Assembly: GCA_040220235.1 (NCBI GenBank)
Contig: JAVJTO010000136.1
Strand: one strand, 5' to 3'
Length of the DNA: 12,088 bases
Source of the DNA: Coleofasciculus sp. B1-GNL1-01
GTDB lineage: Bacteria > Cyanobacteriota > Cyanobacteriia > Cyanobacteriales > Coleofasciculaceae
A program made the position numbers and the translations under genes. The notes beneath the pieces are model-generated. The model saw only the letters and a program-made list of their open reading frames with translations, did not search any database and was not told the origin of the DNA. Below are positions 1 through 12,088 of the stretch, one piece after another (within the stretch, counting starts at the first letter, position 1; every line of letters begins with the position of its first letter).

Positions 1-136
1 CGTACTAGGATGATTCGTCACGTAGATGGTTATTCCTACTCACCACTCAAGTATGTCACGAAGGCGGATAAATCCGCAATGTCGCTTTTCCTCCCCGGCT
101 TTGAAAGACCGGGGCTACCAAGCTCCTGTAGTTTAC
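1..136 (-). mobile_element. IS200/IS605-family left end (copy A), element continues beyond window start; inserted 3' of ACAC (140..137, minus strand)
   Basis: Exact reverse complement of 11954..12088. Read on the minus strand: ACAC|GTAAACTACAGGAGCTTG-GTAG-CCCCGGTCTTTCAAAGCCGGGG, an imperfect GC-rich subterminal hairpin with a bulged T (93..114) preceded by a 4-nt guide. A second hairpin GCGGAT-TT-ATCCGC follows. It interrupts the large minus-strand ORF. No transposase is visible, so the family call rests on end architecture only. Confidence 0.75.
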
Positions 137-3080
137 GTGTGGTACTTTCAGCTAATTTTGTGTTCAGGTTGTTAATGACACCATCAAGCTGCTGCTGTAC
201 ACCTGCGGTCAAATTTTTCAGTTCACCCACTGTCGTATCTGCACGACTATTAACCCCATTCGTGTGACCATTTTGCAACTGCGTGAACGCTTGGCTGGCA
301 CGCTGCACCTCTTGGGCAATAGTCGTATTAAACTCCTCAGCCACCGTCGTGCCAGCAGCCGATGCCTGCTGAGTCACCGTATTGATACTGCCCAGCATCT
401 CCTGGGTTTGTTGATCAATCCCCTGTTCCGAATTGCTGATACCCGTCTCCAGGGATGCCTGAGTCGCTGCCATCATGCCATCAAGCTGACCCTGTGCCTC
501 CGCAATCACGGCGTTGACCACTGGTAGATTTGGGGTTTCCATGCCTTGAGCTTGGTCAGCAAATTGCTGGAATGCGCCTTGCACGTTAGTAGTTGCTTGG
601 TTAACCCCTGCTTGCAGCGCCGCTGTTACTTGCTCGGCATTGGCATTAATTCCCAGTTTCTGCTGTTCCCCTAAACTATTGAGCTGAGTTAACTGGGTTG
701 CCTGCATTTGGTCTAAGGAACTCAGGGTGGCATTGAGATTCTGATCAATGCTTTGGAGTTGACCCTTCAAGGCTTGGGATGCCATGTTCAGCGCCGATTT
801 CTCAGACTGGGCGAGTTCTTGCAGAGCCGCCTTGTACTTGAGTTGCAGCTCGTTGCGAGTCGTCGCCACAACCTGCTGCATTCCTTTCACTACTTCCGAC
901 TGGCTGGTGGAGAGTTCTGCGGCTTTTTCATTGGCGTTTTGCTGTAAGCCGTCACTATAGGAGGCAGCGACATCCCCGGCTGCTTTAATCTTGGCTTGGC
1001 GCCAGTTTTCAACGTAGGTTTCTCTGTCAAAGCTTTCCAGAAATTCCGTAATAAAATTACTGGGTTCTGGGGGAGATTCACCTGCAAATTGTTTTTGGTA
1101 ATCGTTACCAATTTGGATGGCTTCCTTGCCAACCGTCACCCCAGCAGCTCGGAAATCTTGGGCAGCTTTGGTGAAGGGTTTGGCAATATCAGACGCCATT
1201 CCCGTCTCAATTTGCTGGAGTTGAGCAAGGCTCGTTTGGTATTCTGTTTGGATGCGATCGCGTGCAGCGGTTGTGGAGGATTTGATCGCCCCGACAGTCG
1301 CTTGGTGTTGTCCCGTTACCTCCTGTTTTGCCCCTTGCGCCTGACTTTGAACTTGGCTACGGGCTTGAGCCATGGCATTAGTAATGGTTGCTTGATTTTG
1401 GCTGATTGCCATATCCACAGCAGCCACAGCTTGCCCCGCCGATGCCTGGATGCGAGGTGCAATGGTTTGTCCGAGGCTGCCTATACTTGCCACGCGCTGT
1501 GAACCCGAAGCCATGAATTGAGACATCGCGGCTTCTGCCTGGAGGCGCTGCTGTTCCATTGAGCTAGCTACCTGAGCTTCAGGAATGGGATGAGCGACAA
1601 TGCCTTGCTCAGCAGCAGCTAGGGAGGCTTGGGGATTCTCGGTTTGGCAAACAACCATACCATTTCCCGCCGCACCCAAAACCGTTTGGGGGTTGAGGGC
1701 AGCAATTCCTGCCTCGGTAGTCACAAAGGTGGGCTTGATTTGAGGTGGAGTAAATGCTACGCCTGTATTGGTTGGGGGTTGTGAGTTCGCCGCCGCCGTT
1801 TCTATCTGACTGCTGGTTTGGGCTACCGCCGTTGCTGCTTCCGCTTGTTTTCCAGCCACTTGTTCTTTTTGAGTGGTGACTTGGGCAACAGCGTCTTGAT
1901 CGACTTTTTCCTCATCAGTGGGTGTCTGTTTGGGGGTATCTCCTGTAGCGTCTGGACTCTCTTGCTCTCCAGCTTGAGCGGTAGCGGTTTCCTCTTTTGC
2001 ACCTGCTTCCGTTTTTGTCTCCGGCTCACCTAGATTTTCTGTTGTTTCGGCTGTCTCTGTTTTCGTTACGGCTTCAACAGCCTTTTGCGCGTCCTGGTTA
2101 GCCGTCTTGGCACTGGCGACATCGGGATTCGTGGACTCACTCTTACTGTTTTCCGCCTGACTCTTGTCCGTATTGGCACTATCAGTATCAGCGTTCTTAT
2201 GCTTACCTTTTTCGTCCTGAATGGCTACTTTCCGTTTAGCTTGAGAATTGCTCTCCGGCTGGTTCCGAGCAGTCTCCCTATCTGGCTCATTTTCAGCCGC
2301 CGCACTTGTGCTTTTGGTATCAGCAACGGCATCGCTCTCCGTTTCAGTTTCCTCTAGGGTTTCAGATTCACTTATTCCCTCCTGTGTGTCGTCTGAGGGC
2401 GTTTCCCTCTTGGTTTGAACGGGAGTCTCAGACGTCAGCCGATTCAACCCATTCAATCTAAGATTGGTTCTCTGTCCCAAAAGCGGTTGATACTGAGTCT
2501 CTAACCCCTTTTGGGGCAGCTTCCTCTGCACCGAAGATGGCTCTTTTCCTGGAGCATTGACTGGAACTTTCAGCCAGTTGGAACTCAAACGGGATGCTCG
2601 TTCCTTTTGAGCTTGTAAATCCGGGATTTGGGATTGCGGCTTTTCCGTTTCTGCCTCTGACTCCCCAGCAGGGGTAACACCTTCTGTTTCAGATGACTCC
2701 TGACCCTGTGATGCGGCGGCGGAGGATTGTTGTTTTTCTGATTCAACAGTTTCTTCTACCTGTTCTGATGTTGCCTCAACGTCTGGTACTTCCTGCGGCT
2801 GAGAGTTATCTTCTGATCCTCCACTAGCAGGCTTTTGCTGAATGGGTTGCGGTGGAGGTGTTTCTGATGCTTTAACCGGGACGTTCAAACCGTTGTAACC
2901 CACAAAGGCTGCTTGTTCCAGTTTCTGTTGCAGAAAAGCCTTCTGTTCTTCAGGGGAGCGTCGCACCACCTTTTCCGGCGGCTTGGGGACTTTGAAGCGG
3001 CGCCGCTGCAATGGATTGGGCGCTGGCGTCCGATTAAAGGGTGAGGAATTTTTTTTGCGGATGGGTTCTTGAAAAGACAT
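36..3080 (-). CDS. Large Gln/Ala/Glu-rich hypothetical protein, C-terminally truncated by IS insertion; N-terminus resembles cyanobacterial eCIS-associated (DUF4157-type) proteins
   Basis: Open frame of 1014 aa from ATG 3080 (ORF track starts at TTG 3098). It has a basic/Pro-rich N-terminus, a duplicated LQxxxExAxxxxxNxLxVPVxA motif, IQQK/VQRK/VQTK motifs, an acidic disordered linker and ~500 aa of Q/A-rich predicted helix. The last 33 aa (RKLQEL...YLSGE) are read from the IS end. The functional link is an inference and no DUF4157 HExxH motif is seen. Confidence 0.7.
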   Translation of the reverse strand: MSFQEPIRKKNSSPFNRTPAPNPLQRRRFKVPKPPEKVVRRSPEEQKAFLQQKLEQAAFVGYNGLNVPVKASETPPPQPIQQKPASGGSEDNSQPQEVPDVEATSEQVEETVESEKQQSSAAASQGQESSETEGVTPAGESEAETEKPQSQIPDLQAQKERASRLSSNWLKVPVNAPGKEPSSVQRKLPQKGLETQYQPLLGQRTNLRLNGLNRLTSETPVQTKRETPSDDTQEGISESETLEETETESDAVADTKSTSAAAENEPDRETARNQPESNSQAKRKVAIQDEKGKHKNADTDSANTDKSQAENSKSESTNPDVASAKTANQDAQKAVEAVTKTETAETTENLGEPETKTEAGAKEETATAQAGEQESPDATGDTPKQTPTDEEKVDQDAVAQVTTQKEQVAGKQAEAATAVAQTSSQIETAAANSQPPTNTGVAFTPPQIKPTFVTTEAGIAALNPQTVLGAAGNGMVVCQTENPQASLAAAEQGIVAHPIPEAQVASSMEQQRLQAEAAMSQFMASGSQRVASIGSLGQTIAPRIQASAGQAVAAVDMAISQNQATITNAMAQARSQVQSQAQGAKQEVTGQHQATVGAIKSSTTAARDRIQTEYQTSLAQLQQIETGMASDIAKPFTKAAQDFRAAGVTVGKEAIQIGNDYQKQFAGESPPEPSNFITEFLESFDRETYVENWRQAKIKAAGDVAASYSDGLQQNANEKAAELSTSQSEVVKGMQQVVATTRNELQLKYKAALQELAQSEKSALNMASQALKGQLQSIDQNLNATLSSLDQMQATQLTQLNSLGEQQKLGINANAEQVTAALQAGVNQATTNVQGAFQQFADQAQGMETPNLPVVNAVIAEAQGQLDGMMAATQASLETGISNSEQGIDQQTQEMLGSINTVTQQASAAGTTVAEEFNTTIAQEVQRASQAFTQLQNGHTNGVNSRADTTVGELKNLTAGVQQQLDGVINNLNTKLAESTTRKLQELGSPGLSKPGRKSDIADLSAFVTYLSGE

Positions 3081-3320
3081 TGCCAAACGTGTCCCCAATC
3101 AATGCTGATCTTTTCTGTGCCTCCATCAACCGCCAATGGCGTGTGTGGGAAGATTCAGAATAAAATATCCTCAATTTTATCTTGGAGATAAGGTAAGCGC
3201 TCATTCCTCTCATCAAAACTTAACCAACTCGCGATCGCTATAGTGGTATCGAGCTTGGAGAAAATCAATGCGATCGTCTCTCACCCCATCAACTGTTCTG
3301 TTATCACTTGTGTTATCTTA

Positions 3321-3710
3321 CTACGCCTGCTCCAACCAATCCACTAAATCCGACACCTCAGAAAAATCCAATAGCGCTTCTGCTAACGCTTCCAACTGGA
3401 CGATGGGTAATCTCCTAACCTGCTCAATTAATACTGGCTCAACCTCACCCAACCGCCGCTTAAGCTGACGGATAATCAAATTCACCTCTCCTGCTCGTGG
3501 CTGCTGATCCAACCAAGCCGTTAAATCAGTAGTTGCCGAAAAATCCAATATCGCTACCCCTAACGCCTCTAGCTGTTCGGGAGGTAACTCCCTAACCCGC
3601 TCAATTAATGCTGGTTCAACCTTACCCAGTCGCCGCTCAATCAGGCGTCTAGTCAAGCTGAATATCCCTTGTTGCAAAATATCTTGATAAATTACAGATC
3701 CACGCATCAT
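3321..3710 (-). CDS. DUF4351 domain-containing protein (two tandem DUF4351 repeats); C-terminal remnant of an Rpn-family (PD-(D/E)XK nuclease/putative transposase) gene
   Basis: MMRGSVIYQDILQQG is followed by two repeats of the LxxRxLxRRLGxV...LxxxQLEALxxAxLDFSxxxDLxxWL type. GGGAGG lies just upstream of ATG ATG (3710/3707). The in-frame upstream stretch STEILAGLRFEKDLIRRFLRED (to 3776) resembles the pre-C-terminal helix of cyanobacterial Rpn proteins and is preceded by TAA at 3779..3777. Confidence 0.8.
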   Translation of the reverse strand: MMRGSVIYQDILQQGIFSLTRRLIERRLGKVEPALIERVRELPPEQLEALGVAILDFSATTDLTAWLDQQPRAGEVNLIIRQLKRRLGEVEPVLIEQVRRLPIVQLEALAEALLDFSEVSDLVDWLEQA

Positions 3711-3810
3711 ATCCTCCCGCAAAAACCGACGAATTAAATCTTTCTCAAACCGTAACCCCGCGAGAATTTCTGTACTTTAGCTACATCTTTACTATTTTTT
3801 ACTAAAACAC

Positions 3811-4393: not shown

Positions 4394-6721
4394 CTATAAA
4401 TCACTGATAAACATCATCGCTGACGCCTGATTCACGGTTGCCACTCTTGCCACTGCATGACGCCAATTTTGCTGGTCTTGCTTCCGGGTTTCTAACTCCT
4501 TAAATTCTAACCAAACCTTGGAGCGAACATCCTCATCACTCAGAAAAATTTCCCACTCTCGCTTCATGTCTCTGGCATAAATAACCAAATCGATAAATTC
4601 CTGCACCATATAATAACGAGCTTGACTGGGTGCAGTTAGCCAACTATTTAATGTTTCCTGACAAGCCGCCACTGCTTGCTCATGCAGCTTTTCCAGGTTC
4701 CTGAGTACCTCTGAAGCATTGGACGGATCAGGTAAAATTCCGAACACTTCCGCCAGACTTAAATCAATATCTGATTGCAGAATTTCATCAAGCTGTTTGC
4801 GAATTAAATGTAATAGAACACTCCCGTAAGAAAACTCGAATTCCCAAAGCGTTCTAAACCCTAACTCTAATTGATTTCCCCGTTGTCCTAGTAAATCAGC
4901 CATGTCTTTGAGAAAATCAGCGCCTCTGGTTGAGGTTAATTCGCCCAATTTACCTTGATTGACTAACACATCAGTTACTAACGATTTCACTTTATCAATC
5001 GATAGTCTCAATCCTTGATCAACTTGTAAAAAATGCCGCGATAAATGAATTCGCAGTTCCCGAATGTAGACGCGGTAGATAGCTTGATAGGATTCTTTAA
5101 ACTCAAATTCACAACTGCGGCTGATAATCTCCTGATCTGTCTCTGGAATCCCTTTATCGGTTTGACAGTTTTTCAACGCGGCTTGCACCGCCACCTGAAA
5201 ATCTGGATCAATGGCTTCACATTGTTCTTTCAGTTGATTCCTCAGTTCTAAAAGACCTTGGATTAGTTCCTGAGACAGTTGCTCAAATAATCGTCTAAAT
5301 TGGCGAGATTCCCCCGAATTGTATCCCAAGGCTTGAGTCGATTTTTCCAGTGCTTGCTGAATCTGCTGATGTAATTGTTGCAGGTTACTTTGGCAATGAA
5401 TCGCGTATCGCTGATCCAAGTCTTGAATATTCACCGTGAGATAGTCTAAAACCTGATTAAAGACTCGGTTAGCATCATCTGGATCAGAACAATCTGCTAT
5501 TTCGGTCTGTACGACCTGAATCGTATCAATATTTTGCTTAAGGCGTTGACAGGCTCTAAGATTCTCAGTTCTGCGACTATAATTTAAAATCATAAATGAC
5601 CGTTTTTCTAGATCATTCAGAGCTTGCGCTGCTTTATCATATAACTGAGTATCTAGGCGTTGCCATTGATAACGCTGCGGATCAGGTCGTTTAATAAACA
5701 AAACCACATCCACTTCATTCCCCAAGGTTTCTAACATTAGCGTTTCATCGCCTAACTTGGAGTCACCTAAACCCGGAACATCTACTAACGCAATGTTGCC
5801 CACATCCGGATTTTGAAACGGACAAACTATCTTAACCTCTTTTACTGCCAAGTGTTTGAACGTGATTAAATAATTCTGCTGCGTACCATCCCGTTTTTGC
5901 ATCACATAATCGGTAATTTCTTCCGCCTGAATTTTGAGCGATCGCGGATTTCCAGACTGAAGCAAAGATCTATAGTGACGGAGATTTTGATGATAATCGT
6001 AGCAGAGGCGTTTGTACATCTCTTCATTGCTTGCTCCGACTACTCCTTGTTCGGGAAATACCTGGTTGGCGAACTCATCTAAACTATAGGGTTTTTCCGT
6101 TAAACCAAGTTCATCGTAATAGGGATAAATAACTTCCTTTAAAAAGGATGATTCCGAATGTAGCGTGACTTCAACCTGAACAGAGGTTTTGGGTTTAGGT
6201 AAAACCATCTGGTCTTGAATTCCATATAAACTAGAGCCAACGCCATTAAATTGAACCGTTTTATCCTCTGAATTATTGTTAGTCAATAATTCCTCTTGCC
6301 GATTTTCAATTGTACTGCGAACTGCCGTGCAAGCTCCTCCTTCTAGTGCCGGAATTTCATTATCAGTCAGTCCACTTAAGGTTTTCAGTAATGTACTTTT
6401 TCCCTGTCCCATTAATCCGACAACGCCAATATTTAAGGTAGGACGCGAGAAACGTTTTTGCAGACTGTTCAGATTCTCGGATTCAATTTGAAGTTGTTGC
6501 AACAAATAGGAGAGATGAATGGTATTGAATTTCTCTTGGATTTCACTCTCACCGAACGATACCGCCAGCCGTTGACGATACCGTTCTAATTCGCCCAAGG
6601 CGGAGGTAAGTTGAGCGAGATGGCTTTCTACCTGTTGTATGTTTTGGACTAGGGGTTGGCGCTGTTCGATGATCTGGTTAATCCGTTGCGCTCTTGTCTG
6701 GGGGGGTTGGCTGGTATTCAT
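4394..6721 (-). CDS. Dynamin-like (TRAFAC) GTPase family protein, 775 aa
   Basis: N-terminal coiled coil, then G1 GLMGQGKS (aa 102-109), G2 GGACT, G3 LVDVPGLGD, a degenerate G4 (MILNYS) and a long helical C-terminal stalk. This is the layout of bacterial dynamin-like proteins. Confidence 0.85.
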   Translation of the reverse strand: MNTSQPPQTRAQRINQIIEQRQPLVQNIQQVESHLAQLTSALGELERYRQRLAVSFGESEIQEKFNTIHLSYLLQQLQIESENLNSLQKRFSRPTLNIGVVGLMGQGKSTLLKTLSGLTDNEIPALEGGACTAVRSTIENRQEELLTNNNSEDKTVQFNGVGSSLYGIQDQMVLPKPKTSVQVEVTLHSESSFLKEVIYPYYDELGLTEKPYSLDEFANQVFPEQGVVGASNEEMYKRLCYDYHQNLRHYRSLLQSGNPRSLKIQAEEITDYVMQKRDGTQQNYLITFKHLAVKEVKIVCPFQNPDVGNIALVDVPGLGDSKLGDETLMLETLGNEVDVVLFIKRPDPQRYQWQRLDTQLYDKAAQALNDLEKRSFMILNYSRRTENLRACQRLKQNIDTIQVVQTEIADCSDPDDANRVFNQVLDYLTVNIQDLDQRYAIHCQSNLQQLHQQIQQALEKSTQALGYNSGESRQFRRLFEQLSQELIQGLLELRNQLKEQCEAIDPDFQVAVQAALKNCQTDKGIPETDQEIISRSCEFEFKESYQAIYRVYIRELRIHLSRHFLQVDQGLRLSIDKVKSLVTDVLVNQGKLGELTSTRGADFLKDMADLLGQRGNQLELGFRTLWEFEFSYGSVLLHLIRKQLDEILQSDIDLSLAEVFGILPDPSNASEVLRNLEKLHEQAVAACQETLNSWLTAPSQARYYMVQEFIDLVIYARDMKREWEIFLSDEDVRSKVWLEFKELETRKQDQQNWRHAVARVATVNQASAMMFISDL

Positions 6722-7022: not shown

Positions 7023-7134
7023 GATTGATGTATTAACAAAGCTATAAATGTTGTATCGTTTTATTAATACATCAGATCCAAACGATTGAGAATAAGCGAG
7101 ACTACATAACATAGCACGAAAAGGGTTGTCGATC

Positions 7135-8022
7135 ATGAAATCGTCTGGGTTGGGTTTCCGCTGCTTGTTCGCTCTTCTATCCCTATGCCAAGCAATTCTC
7201 TGTGGCGTTGCAGCGCTAATTGGAGATTCCGCCGCCCTAGCGCAATCCATCACCCCAGCCGCAGACGGTACAGGTACAACGGTTACGGAAAATGGTACCC
7301 AATATGATATTGACGGTGGTAGTATTTCCGCCGATGGGAGTAATTTATTCCATAGTTTTGAGCAGTTTGGCTCAAATGCAAACCAAACTGCCAATTTTCT
7401 CGCCAATCCCAACCTGGAAAATATTCTCAGTCGCGTCACGGGTGGAAATGCGTCGGTAATTAACGGTTTGATTCAGGTAACGGGGGGAACGCCTAATTTA
7501 TATTTAATGAATCCGGCGGGAATTATTTTGGGGGAAGGTGCGAGTTTAAACGTTCCTGCTAATTTTACCGCCACAACCGCCACAGGAATTGGATTTGAAA
7601 ATAACACTTGGTTTAATGCCAGTGGTGCGAATAATTATCAAACCTTAATTGGCACACCCAATCAGTTTTCCTTTAACGTATCCCAACCGGGAACTATTGT
7701 TAATGCTGGCGACTTATCCGTATCACCAGGGCAAACTGTCACCTTACTCGGTGGTAGTGTAATCAATACAGGAACCATCACCGCAGCCGGAGGAACCGTT
7801 ACCGTGGCAGCGGTTCCGGGTTCCAATTTAGTCAAGATATCTCAGCCAGGAAAATTACTATCGTTAGAAATTGAACAACCCACCAATGGTATGGGAGAAC
7901 CCTTACCCGTTACACCTCTAGATTTACCTGAGTTGTTAACGGGTAACGAGGAAACTGTTGAGACTGGGCTTGATGTGTTGTTATTTGGTCAGATGAAACA
8001 GCTAATATACATGGAACATTAA
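7135..8022 (+). CDS. Filamentous haemagglutinin N-terminal (TPS secretion) domain fragment, 295 aa
   Basis: Signal peptide ending ...[17 protein letters not shown], plus motifs [27 protein letters not shown] and [10 protein letters not shown]. The last ~15 aa ([14 protein letters not shown]) are out of frame. Confidence 0.8.
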
Positions 8023-11000
8023 CAGCACGAGGAGGCATCACTGCTGGAAATGGGGGATTAATTGAAACCTCTAGCAAAAAGTTTCTGGAACTTACCAGTA
8101 CCCCTGATACTTCTGCCCCTCAGGGGAAAGGGGGGACATGGCTAATTGATCCGACTGATATCACGATTGTAAATACTGGGGGAGGCGCGATTGGCACAAA
8201 CACAGTTGATGTTGCTAATATTAACACGGTACTTAATAATGGCAACAATGTCACGATTACGACAAATATCGCTGGTCTTACAGGTTTAGGCAATATTACC
8301 CTCGACAGTGGTGCAGCAATTAACAAAACAGGCGGAGGAGATGCTACGTTGACTTTGGAGGCAGATAATAATATCACTCTGAATGCGGGTATTACCTCTA
8401 GTAGTGGCAGGCTGAATCTCAATCTTTTTGCTGATCATGAGAATAACGGTGAGGGGATAGTCGAAATCAATCAATCCATTTTGACAGGAGGAGGAAATAT
8501 TGTTGCTACCGGAATGACTACCGGAACGAGTCCAGGTGTATTAGTTAATACCCCCCTCGACACCGGAGGTGGAGACCTTGAAATCACTGGAACTAGCACG
8601 TTGGAAGGTGTTCGTATCAATGACGAAATTAACTCCGGAGGCGGAGATATTATCCTTACCGGAAATAGCACAGGTAACGCCCCAGGATCATGGGGAATAT
8701 TGGTTGATCAACTGACTTCTGTCGGCGGGAATATTAGTGTAACAAGTCTTGGAGGATTTGAGGGGATTATTATTGCTAACCCGATCAATTCAGGCAGTGG
8801 AACTATTACCTTGACAGGTGACAGGATTAATCTTCAATTTTTTGGTTCTCCTTCAGTTAGCGGCAGTGGCGATTTAATTTTGCAACCATTGACGGCGAGT
8901 ATAAATCTGGAAATTGGTGGTACGGGTGCGGCAAGGACAACATTCCTGAACACACAAGAACTAGGTATAATAACGAATGGCTTACCCTGGATTACTATTG
9001 GACGAGATGACAGTAGTGGTACAATTACCCTAGGTGATAACGTCACATTTAATGACCCTGTAACCTTGCGATCGCCTAACGGATCAATAAACACTACAGG
9101 TGGCACTATTACTGGAGCAGATGATGCCACGATCACGTTGCTCTCTGGCGGCACAATTCGTACCGGAAATATCACAAATCCCGGTCGTTCTATTACCATA
9201 GGTACTCCCACCCTACCCGCCGCTAGTATTGAAGCTGGAAGCATCAGAACTAACACGACAACTGATGGTGACAATGGTGGTTCCGTCAATTTGGAAGCTT
9301 CAGGGGATATTACAGCATCACAAATTTTTACTATGTGGGAAGGTTCCACAACGGGTGATGGTGGTGATATCGCTGTTAAAGCGGGTGGTGATCTTTCTAT
9401 TAATGGTGATGTTCTTTCCTTGACGAATAATGGTAATGGCGGCAACATTACCTTTAATGTAGGCGGCAATATTTACACAGATGATATTCAGTCAATTGGT
9501 AATTTAAGTAGTGGAACCATTAATCTCAGAAGTGGTGGTACTATAGATACCACGTTTTTTGGGGGAACTGCTGGTGTAATATTCTCTTGTTCTGGCATAG
9601 GAAATCAGTGTTCTGGTGGTAATAGTGCAGGTGGCGATGTCACTCTTGAAGCAGCAACGAGTATTATCACCAATATCAATGCCACAGGTTCTTTAGGTGG
9701 CGGTAATATCATTGTTACCAGTGACGAAATTGACATTGGTGCAAGCAGCAATGGTGGAACAATTGAACTCAAGCCATTTACAGCAGATCAAGATATTGTT
9801 ATTGGCGCATCAACTACCAATAATACAGCGGCATTAGATTTGACAGCAGCAAAACTTAATCGATTACAAGATGGCTTTAGCTCGATTACTATCGGACGAA
9901 CTGACAGTAACGGTACGATTACTTTAGCTAATACTGTCACCTTTAATGATCCGGTTAATATTGCAGGTGGTTCAGAATTAATTGGAACAGATGGCGATAC
10001 AACCTTTACGATTACTAGCACCGATGCGGGTAATATTAGTGGTTTTGGTTCACCCTTAACCTTCTCCTCAATTGAGACTATTACAGGTGGTAGTGCTAAC
10101 GATACTTTTGCCTTCACTAATAATGCAACCCTTAGCGGCACGATTGATGGCGGTGGTGGTACAGATACCCTAGACTACTCCAGTAATCCAACTCCAGTCA
10201 CCGTTAATCTTGCCGCTATTGGCGGTGAAAATATTGAAGCCGCGATTGGTAATACAGGTAGCACCTTTAATTGGGCGATTACGAATAGCAATAGCGGCAC
10301 AATTAATGACACACTCAATTTCAACACCTTCTCGAATCTGACAGGTGGCAATAATGACGACACATTTAGTTTCAATGATGGCGTAACCTTTACCGGAACC
10401 GTTGATGGCGGCGCAGGAACAGATACCCTAGACTATTCAGCCTATACCAGTCCCTTAACTGTAAACTTAGCAGTATTAGGGGGAACTAATATTGAACAAG
10501 TCCACGGAACCCCAAATGCAACCAGTACCCTAATTGCCAATAACACCGCAAACACTTGGAATATTACCGGAAGCAATAGCGGTACAGTTAACGGACTGAA
10601 TTTTAGTGACTTTTCTAACCTGACGGGTGGAAACTCAGATGATACGTTTCAATTCAACAATGCAGCGACTATAAGCAGCAACATTGATGGAGGTGCAGGA
10701 AATCTTACCTTAATCGGCGATGAGCTTAATTTTACAAGCAATATCTCTGGAACCGGAACTTTAACTCTACAACCTTTAACCTCAAGCCAAGGAATTCAAC
10801 TAGGGGGTGCGGATAGTGGTAGCACAAGTATTTTAGATTTAACCGCACCAGAACTGAATTCTCTACAAAATACGTTTACCTCAATCACCATTGGGGGAAC
10901 AACTAGCAGTGGCGCAATTACCCTAGCTGATGATATTACATTCCAAACCCCGGTTACATTACAAGCACCTGTGGGTTCAGGTTCCATCAATACCACCGCC

Positions 11001-11957
11001 GGAACCATCACCGGAGAAGGGAATGCGACGATTACCTTGTTGGCGAATCAAGATATTATCACCAGTGACATTATCAATCGCGATCGCGCCCTTACCATCA
11101 CCAGTACCAATGGTGCAATTACTACAGGCAATCTTACCGTCGGTGCGCTGACACTGACAACCAGTGGCGGCGATATTTCGGTCAATAGCTCTAATCCTAC
11201 TATCTTGTCCGGTTCAGGCGTTATTCAAACCCTTGGCGGAACCGTTACCCTCAATACAACTGATTTGGAAGGGGGTGGGGTTACCTTAAATACCAGTAAC
11301 CCCACGGGAGAGGGGGGGAATATATACCTTAACGCAAAATCTGGCAGAGTGGCGATCGCAAATCTGAATAGTTCTGGATTGACGGGTGGCGATATTGTTG
11401 TTCAAGCGGAATTAGAAATAACCACAGGTGCAATTAATACCAGTGGCAGTTCCGGTGATGGGGGTCATGTTACCCTTGACCCTATTGGCGATATTCAGGT
11501 AACTTCGATTAACGCTCAAGGTGGTGATAATGGTACAGGGGGTAACGTTGATATCACCGCAGGCAAATACTTCCGCGCCACAGATACATTTACTGACCAA
11601 AATGGGATAGACGCCAGTATTTCTACGGCTGGGGGTAACGGTGGGGGAGATATTACCATTCGTCATGGGGGTGACGCACTCACACCGTTTAAAGTTGGTG
11701 ATGCAGAAATTAATGGTACGGCTGGCGTTCTCACCAGCGGAGACATTAGTATTATCCCGCCGCGTTCCTTTCCCCTGACTCACCGAGAAGGAAATATTGC
11801 GATTATTCGCGGTGATCTTCCCACCACTACCATCGATGAACCGCCGATAAATCCGGTTGATATTACTCAACAGACTGAGAGTAATGAATCTGCCGAGGAA
11901 GATAGCATTTCAGACGAAAGTAGTCCAGTCGCTGTCTCATCAACAACCAACACGTAA
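7974..11957 (+). CDS. Filamentous haemagglutinin-like Gly/Thr/Asn-rich beta-helical repeat region (downstream fragment of the broken gene)
   Basis: Frame +3 is open from 7974 (after TGA 7971) and reads [20 protein letters not shown]...GGLIETS...[12 protein letters not shown]. This is 125 codons upstream of the ORF-track TTG at 8349, so the fragment has no genuine start of its own. It contains repeated ITIGRxDSxGTITL...VTFNDPV and [13 protein letters not shown] modules. Confidence 0.75.
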
Positions 11958-12088
11958 ACTACAGGAGCTTGGTAGCCCCGGTCTTTCAAAGCCGGGGAGG
12001 AAAAGCGACATTGCGGATTTATCCGCCTTCGTGACATACTTGAGTGGTGAGTAGGAATAACCATCTACGTGACGAATCATCCTAGTAC
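11954..12088 (+). mobile_element. IS200/IS605-family left end (copy B), element continues beyond window end; inserted 3' of ACAC (11950..11953)
   Basis: Identical to copy A. Guide GTAG at 11972..11975, hairpin CCCCGG-T-CTT-TCA-AAG-CCGGGG at 11976..11997, second hairpin at 12013..12026. It supplies the stop codon of the haemagglutinin ORF. Confidence 0.75.
12011..12040 (+). promoter_or_regulatory. Possible sigma70-type promoter pointing into the IS (mirror copy at 50..79 on the minus strand)
   Basis: TTGCGG-18 nt-CATACT with a TG extended -10 motif, overlapped by the GCGGAT/ATCCGC palindrome. Motif match only. Confidence 0.3.

Follow-up and report, generated by a model that had tools for sequence, protein, structure and literature searches.

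A gene-less IS200/IS605-type element with an ACAC target and a predicted guide RNA cargo in Coleofasciculus sp. B1-GNL1-01

The stretch of DNA studied here (the window, 12,088 nucleotides) is the entire contig C136 (JAVJTO010000136.1) of the 8.66-Mb draft genome of Coleofasciculus sp. B1-GNL1-01 (genome G000), and carries the left end of the same mobile element at both of its extremities. We found that the full element is 401 bp long, contains no protein gene, and is almost certainly of the IS200/IS605 type, with ACAC as its target. Judging from alignments of its relatives, its cargo seems to consist of a -10 box, followed by an ~150-nt covarying RNA domain and then by a TnpB-type omega-RNA scaffold. 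Our best reading, which we consider probable, is that of a protein-free IS605 derivative similar to the gene-less elements known as PATEs, which moves with a borrowed TnpA and is restored with a borrowed TnpB.

Boundaries, guide and sister elements

The two window copies form an inverted pair of 139 nt with 100% complementarity (2-140 and 11950-12088) and, given that the window spans the whole contig, both were cut by the assembly. They share ACAC and diverge from the next base outward. In the right-hand copy, on the plus strand, the target ACAC (11950..11953) is followed by nucleotides 1-135 of the element (11954..12088), identical to a full copy on contig C103. The left-end guide GTAG lies at +19..+22 (11972..11975), directly 5' of a subterminal hairpin (11976..11997) that is conserved among related left ends; single-stranded DNA folding predicted this hairpin, an outer stem (11967-11970/12003-12006) that puts the guide in an internal loop, and a second hairpin (12013-12026). 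The left-hand copy, on the minus strand, comprises the first 136 nt of the element (1..136; guide 118-115, hairpin 114-93), identical in sequence, behind its own ACAC (137..140). Folding of window positions 11960-12030 as single-stranded DNA gave a z-score of -2.96, and a longer 149-nt stretch only -1.26. The original prediction, made from the letters alone, had proposed an IS200/IS605-type left end at this position, with GTAG at the foot of the hairpin and ACAC shared by both copies, and all of this was borne out. The element that the assembly had collapsed was recovered in full at the end of C103, where it extends from the base after ACAC to a terminal TCAA, with a GAAT guide and a hairpin at its right end.

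G000 shows the element's left junction three times (twice in the window, once on C52) and its right junction four times (C19, C42, C103 and C149), which implies at least four copies, and these were identical across their assembled ends. ACAC also terminates the third flank, on C52, and the full copy on C103 begins with ACAC at the contig end. In genome G007, a copy 98.8% identical to the element occupies a different site, with ACAC directly before it. The chance of two unrelated flanks sharing four given bases is ~1/256 under equal base use, and ACAC was seen in three G000 flanks and one G007 flank. About 50 nt upstream of the G007 copy, we also noted a match to the NsiR1 small RNA above the gathering score (L002:185-237).

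Sites without the element were found in related genomes. In the G005 orthologue of the left flank, which is 99% identical, ACAC is joined directly to the sequence found behind the C103 right end (L035), and in the G004 and G001 orthologues of the right flank, it is joined to the sequence found behind the C149 right end (L037, L039). The site of a sister copy on C63 is empty in G007, where ACAC was kept (L054). These four empty alleles with a single ACAC indicate that ACAC is host DNA and that the target is not duplicated, as had been anticipated. Two alleles were exceptions: the G002 orthologue (L038) has a 3-nt deletion at the insertion site, and, on C98 of G000, the empty orthologue of the G007 copy's site (92% identical) has AAAC in place of ACAC. 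No empty allele could be paired with the junction flanks on C52, C19 and C42. The AAAC site, together with the inclusion of ACAC in the collapsed repeat, with which C103 starts, would suit an ordinary MITE (a transposable element of the miniature inverted-repeat kind) moved by a DDE transposase, with ACAC belonging to the element or being a target that was duplicated. We give this explanation practically no credence, given that it is refuted by the four empty alleles with a single, unduplicated ACAC, that terminal inverted repeats are lacking, and that the four right junctions in G000 run into unrelated sequences. That the copy ends are identical, and that the site is empty in a genome whose flank matches at 99% identity, indicates, at the sequence level, that the element moved recently, in agreement with the original prediction.

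The element has both ends, no coding capacity and several near-identical copies, the properties by which PATEs are recognized, along with subterminal hairpins at both ends and no terminal inverted repeats, as in the IS200/IS605 family. Its longest ATG-started open reading frame (ORF) has 37 codons, and a six-frame tblastx search returned only its own copies among the matches listed, with no homology to tnpA or tnpB. Membership among autonomous IS605 or tnpB-only IS1341 elements was rejected, as no tnpA or tnpB ORF or homology was present in six frames. The 401-bp element, having neither gene, is therefore not itself the candidate RNA-guided nuclease that had been suggested, and the TnpB idea shifts to sister elements with the same ends. 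Plasmid records gave no match, and a viral scan gave two loci.

In IS608, guide bases 1, 2 and 4 pair with cleavage-site bases 2, 1 and 4 (AAAG/TTAC at the left end, GAAT/TCAA at the right end), and from this rule the original prediction had derived A-C-N-C, which ACAC matches, as the target of GTAG. The guides, cleavage sites, two of the base pairs and a T-4/A-2 hydrogen bond of IS608 have been described (PMC3201880; here and below, statements on cited papers refer to their accessible parts). We ran a guide-free left-end pattern, whose fixed bases favour this left-end family, on a species-genome collection and obtained at least 115 loci; after removal of three with too little flank and four duplicates, 108 sites were kept. 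The pairing rule was satisfied at 96 of these 108 distinct sites, with a spacer of 17-21 nt, versus 8/108 in each of two control windows in the flanks; 5000 permutations of the guides gave 57 on average and 71 at most. By guide, matches were 68/75 for GTAG-ACAC, 18/19 for ATAG-ATAC, 7/7 for GAAA-TCAT, 2/3 for GCAG-GCAC and 1/1 for GAAT-TCAA, with three odd guides unmatched. When each left-end type was counted once, the rule was satisfied in 52/58. The free third target base was A in all fitted targets, and in multi-copy families the flanks diverged at the target motif (13 and 11 different sites in the two largest). GAAT/TCAA pairing was also present at the right end of the element. The covariation of guide and target across the 108 sites identifies GTAG as the guide. 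Given that 68 of the 75 GTAG sites carry ACAC, in many genera, this target appears from the genomes searched to be common in cyanobacteria, and its description as unusual did not stand.

Some left ends depart from the rule in a recurrent manner. At the C63 end (L030:1505-1580) and in L072, L113/L188 and L246, a sequence exactly complementary to the opposite hairpin arm stands in place of the guide, which makes the hairpin long and perfect; this was seen in four separate lineages, and ACAC precedes the left end in each. These exceptions are probably the product of a palindrome correction that immobilises the copy after insertion. In L178, L179, L191 and L193, from unrelated genomes, left ends after ACAC have their guide region swapped for one common short motif.

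The variation of the tetranucleotide with the target also bears on whether GTAG and its hairpin could be a repetitive extragenic palindromic (REP) unit, mobilised by a REP-associated tyrosine transposase. GTAG at the foot of a hairpin is the REP guide, cyanobacteria included (PMC3733652, PMC6006769), and two distant HUH-like matches (23-27% identity) exist in G000. However, a tetranucleotide that follows its target by the IS608 rule, unlike the invariant GTAG/GTGG tag of REP units, the paired GAAT/TCAA right end, and sister transposases that score below the REP cut-off make this origin highly improbable.

The same left end heads four kinds of elements: tnpA+tnpB, tnpB-only, IscB and gene-less. 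Among the complete sisters, the closest ones code for a transposase of the IS200/IS605 kind (NF033573) and for a guided TnpB (NF040570), each exceeding its NCBIfam cut-off; the transposases scored 121-123 bits as IS200/IS605 (cut-off 55), and the sister TnpA matched the solved IS608 TnpA (E 4e-26). A sequence comparison of the sister TnpB to solved structures found no relative. In a TnpB tree of 30 rows made by a quick method, 10 GTAG and 2 GCAG proteins clustered (support 94) in a clade with RuvC-II-rearranged motifs, and three further GTAG proteins fell in an unrelated clade; the GTAG label requires at least three changes. The sister TnpBs are candidates for nucleases with an ACAC target-adjacent motif (TAM). 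Within G000, a sister left end (88% identical) and, behind it, the 3' end of tnpA stand at the end of C63, and C17 and C52 begin with the 3' end of tnpB and a similar right end. A 1949-nt contig with a C63-type left end, retrieved from a sequencing run of unrecorded kind, is possibly the missing sister element. In the closed genome G047 (L008, L016, L022), tnpA+tnpB, tnpB-only and gene-less forms occur together, all with GTAG/ACAC ends.

Predicted omega-RNA scaffold and folded 5' domain

Beginning with an AAGTA motif, at position 259 of the element, the sequence can be aligned to the 3' ends of sister tnpB genes, and two RIIr-5 omega-RNAs begin at this same motif (PMC10278001 supplement). Full pairing between a loop pentamer and the five terminal bases was seen in 46/53 copies and pairing at four of the five positions in three copies, and in the remaining four no hairpin was found; compensatory changes of this pseudoknot were present in six copies, three with one change and three with another. 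In the ISDra2 omega-RNA and in TnpB guides, the last bases likewise take part in a pseudoknot (PMC10097598). By homology and predicted fold, the 3' part of the element is a scaffold related to TnpB guide RNAs, with the attributes of an omega-RNA. An IscB/IsrB omega-RNA (HEARO) was rejected as an alternative identity, given that Rfam gave no match and that the domain profile found nothing at 13 IscB/IsrB-like hits in G000 (E up to 5).

Upstream of the scaffold, the window copy contains an extended -10-like box with a non-canonical first base (12032..12040, plus strand), a putative RNA promoter given its enrichment in the family, followed by the first 41 nt of the ~150-nt structured RNA domain (12048..12088, plus strand); the remainder of the domain, the scaffold and the right end are on C103. 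A TAnnnT box was located just upstream of the domain in 58/66 copies, versus 18% of 901 control windows. Of 301 genomes from the order, 41 contained a match to the inner 200 nt of the element, with two candidates scored per genome, and a covariance model of the 5' domain had matches in 11/151 genomes of the class, with nothing new in G000. A metagenome scan added 35 loci, none of which matched seven reference IS proteins. Among 67 distinct domain copies, which overlap the 29 used for profile building, none had a match to these seven proteins inside or within 1.5 kb upstream (57 copies had at least 500 nt upstream), and the right end was in place in 52 of the 57 copies with enough sequence. When searched in 95 loci, the domain was not found in the 44 protein-bearing sisters (tnpA, tnpB or iscB), which indicates that it was not derived from these genes.

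The predicted fold of the domain comprises two stacked long-range helices, a third helix, a hairpin with a 7-nt loop and a short hairpin. In the domain alignment, 91% of cells pair, versus 34-41% in slid controls, and both-sided changes were present in 11 of 26 pairs (2 of 500 shuffles). Rfam gave nothing above the gathering score for the element and its surroundings, the best match being HgcC (E 0.022) in the right end of a relative. Left-end guides read by eye on domain copies were GTAG, GAAA, AAAG, CAAG and AGAA; an automatic left-end finder recovered a guide-matched target for only 17/64 copies, three of them doubtful, so that this left-end variety rests on the reading by eye. In L193, an IscB element is inserted into the RNA of a gene-less element.

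The absence of the domain from the 44 protein-bearing loci is also what would be expected if, within the same mobile element, the scaffold were left over from a tnpB that was deleted and the 5' domain were cargo in the form of an independent small RNA or a ribozyme. TnpA needs the right-end hairpin and TCAA in any case, and one metagenome copy (L210:2181-2328) has the domain and a -10-like box without recognisable element ends; this copy is possibly domesticated. However, the pseudoknot loop, a TnpB-guide feature (PMC10097598), persists in 46/53 copies and covaries with the 3' end, and the right end is in place in 52/57 copies, so that we consider a relic with unrelated cargo unlikely and retain the gene-less guide RNA element as the preferred reading.

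Interrupted host genes and neighbouring features

Both window copies disrupt host ORFs that are intact in relatives. The left-hand copy interrupts, at position 137 and in the sense direction, an ORF of 1020 aa without a Pfam match (36..3098, minus strand), which reads through in the G005 orthologue. A second, broken IS605 element, consisting of a truncated tnpA fused to a tnpB without a start, lies on C103 ~400 nt beyond the right end of the 401-bp element (L021/L031), where that interrupted host gene continues. The right-hand copy shortens, also in the sense direction, a repeat-rich ORF of 1202 aa (8349..11957, plus strand), whose G004 orthologue is ~440 residues longer. A TPS-domain ORF identified by Pfam scan (7126-8022, plus strand) ends ~330 nt before the repeat-rich ORF, and the two look like pieces of one gene that was broken there and also by the element. 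Pfam scanning also identified a dynamin-family GTPase of 775 aa (4394-6721, minus strand) and a small protein with two DUF4351 repeats (3321-3722, minus strand).

The sense orientation of both copies within long ORFs would fit an IStron-like role of the 5' domain as a splicing device that removes the element from host mRNAs. We regard this role as very improbable, given that the domain begins ~95 nt into the element, downstream of its own -10 box, and not at the left junction, where the group I intron core of an IStron would start, that no Rfam intron model matched, and that the G007 copy lies outside the neighbouring gene.

Proposed mechanism and relation to known systems

TnpB normally loads on its own mRNA, cutting its guide from it. 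In the protein-free IS605 derivative that we favour, the element would move as single-stranded DNA by peel-and-paste, through the Y1 TnpA of a sister tnpA+tnpB element acting in trans. Transcription from the internal -10 box toward the right end would produce an RNA of ~300 nt plus flank, whose 3' ~145 nt would belong, as an omega-RNA scaffold, to the RuvC-II-rearranged (RIIr-5-like) clade of TnpBs. Once bound to a TnpB that is borrowed and has an ACAC TAM, this RNA could direct cutting of the empty site left by excision, and repair from an occupied copy would then restore the element. The 5' ~150-nt domain occupies the place where the tnpB mRNA normally is, and its role, for which we can offer a guess as the least supported step of this scheme, would most likely be in RNA maturation or hand-over to TnpB.

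Several observations weigh against this mechanism. On the protein side, the middle of the sister tnpA+tnpB element is unassembled, and G000 showed neither a TnpA nor a TnpB of the ACAC type in intact form; the sole visible sister left end, on C63, has lost its guide, and the one IS200-type tnpA that the assembly contains in full (C86) goes with a GAAA guide. Twelve of the 108 sites do not satisfy the pairing rule, and GTAG left ends accompany two unrelated TnpB clades, which indicates that ends and nucleases are shuffled and that the TAM need not always equal the target. On the RNA side, the promoter scan called no sigma-70 site in the window copy, the domain structure was derived from the same alignment in which covariation was counted and kin inflate that covariation, the outermost domain helix is weak (66% paired), and the single 401-nt sequence folds no better than shuffles (z -0.46). 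Finally, the four sequencing runs covered were all in the form of assembled contigs, and those from RNA runs, namely four 151-nt contigs of relatives over the 5' domain in one run and a 209-nt contig over the left end in another, do not demonstrate transcription.

Gene-less omega-RNA-carrying elements and guide/target covariation are known (Meers et al., 10.1101/2023.03.14.532601). Similar to the PATE-like ISGst derivatives of Geobacillus stearothermophilus, the Coleofasciculus element has no protein gene, shares its ends with tnpA/tnpB sisters, has a DNA guide that covaries with the adjacent motif, and would need TnpB in trans for its omega-RNA; in contrast to those derivatives, it has an ACAC target and, before the scaffold, an internal -10 box and an ~150-nt folded domain that recurs across cyanobacterial families and has no counterpart in that source. 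With IS608 of Helicobacter pylori, it has in common the subterminal hairpins, a guide 5' of the hairpin foot, a TCAA right end, insertion 3' of a tetranucleotide without duplication, and A at target position -2 (PMC3201880). Unlike IS608, it has no genes and is cut 22 nt, instead of 19, from the hairpin foot (PMC3201880), and given that its target is A-initial, the T-4/A-2 hydrogen bond of IS608 cannot form in the same way.

The RuvC-II-rearranged motifs of ortholog 38 of the RIIr-5 TnpB systems recur in the sister TnpBs, and the scaffold starts at AAGUA, as in orthologs 28 and 38 (PMC10278001). In the same source, ortholog 28 differs in having a TTTAC TAM, ortholog 38 is serine-recombinase-associated and inactive, and RIIr-5 omega-RNAs are cut from the tnpB mRNA (PMC10278001). 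Within this superfamily, an IscB1 element with an AC-initial target has been published before: ISC1-1_KR of Ktedonobacter racemifer is listed with the target GT|GT, AC-initial on the other strand (PMC4810608 Table 1), and differs from our element in encoding IscB1, with a full tetranucleotide that is ambiguous in that notation and no discussion of a guide (PMC4810608). An ACAC target with TnpB was not found in the literature searched, a search that did not extend to ISfinder and several supplements, which may list it; a word search of the accessible part of the PMC10278001 supplement gave no ACAC, ATAC or five-letter forms ending in ACAC. For the 5' folded domain, no description was found in the literature searched or in Rfam. 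What merits attention here is the folded leader on a gene-less guide RNA, which is apparently undescribed, along with the sister TnpBs as candidates for an ACAC TAM; ACAC/GTAG is a common cyanobacterial variant of a known rule.

Published TnpB TAMs are reported to be nearly all AT-rich (PMC10278001), so that a confirmed ACAC TAM would widen the known set. The guides GTAG, ATAG, GCAG and GAAA, with their matching targets and attached TnpBs, form a natural series of one-base changes, in which one can test directly how a TAM read by a protein stays matched to an insertion site set by a DNA guide. More tentatively, the domain copies may represent a widespread lineage of RNA-only parasites of TnpB elements, in which the leader would be a dedicated TnpB-capture or guide-maturing device and the cassette would have been transferred to left ends that differ in guide, following TnpA/TnpB partners specific for ACAC, TCAT, TTAC, TGAC and CTAT. 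The capture of the proteins of long interspersed nuclear elements (LINEs) by the RNAs of short interspersed nuclear elements (SINEs) offers an analogy for TnpB capture by such a leader. If the leader is only a passenger, the outcome is a well-documented PATE family with a new target. The leader's restriction to gene-less guide RNAs points to a solution of the problem of loading TnpB in trans, and such a leader might serve guide expression.
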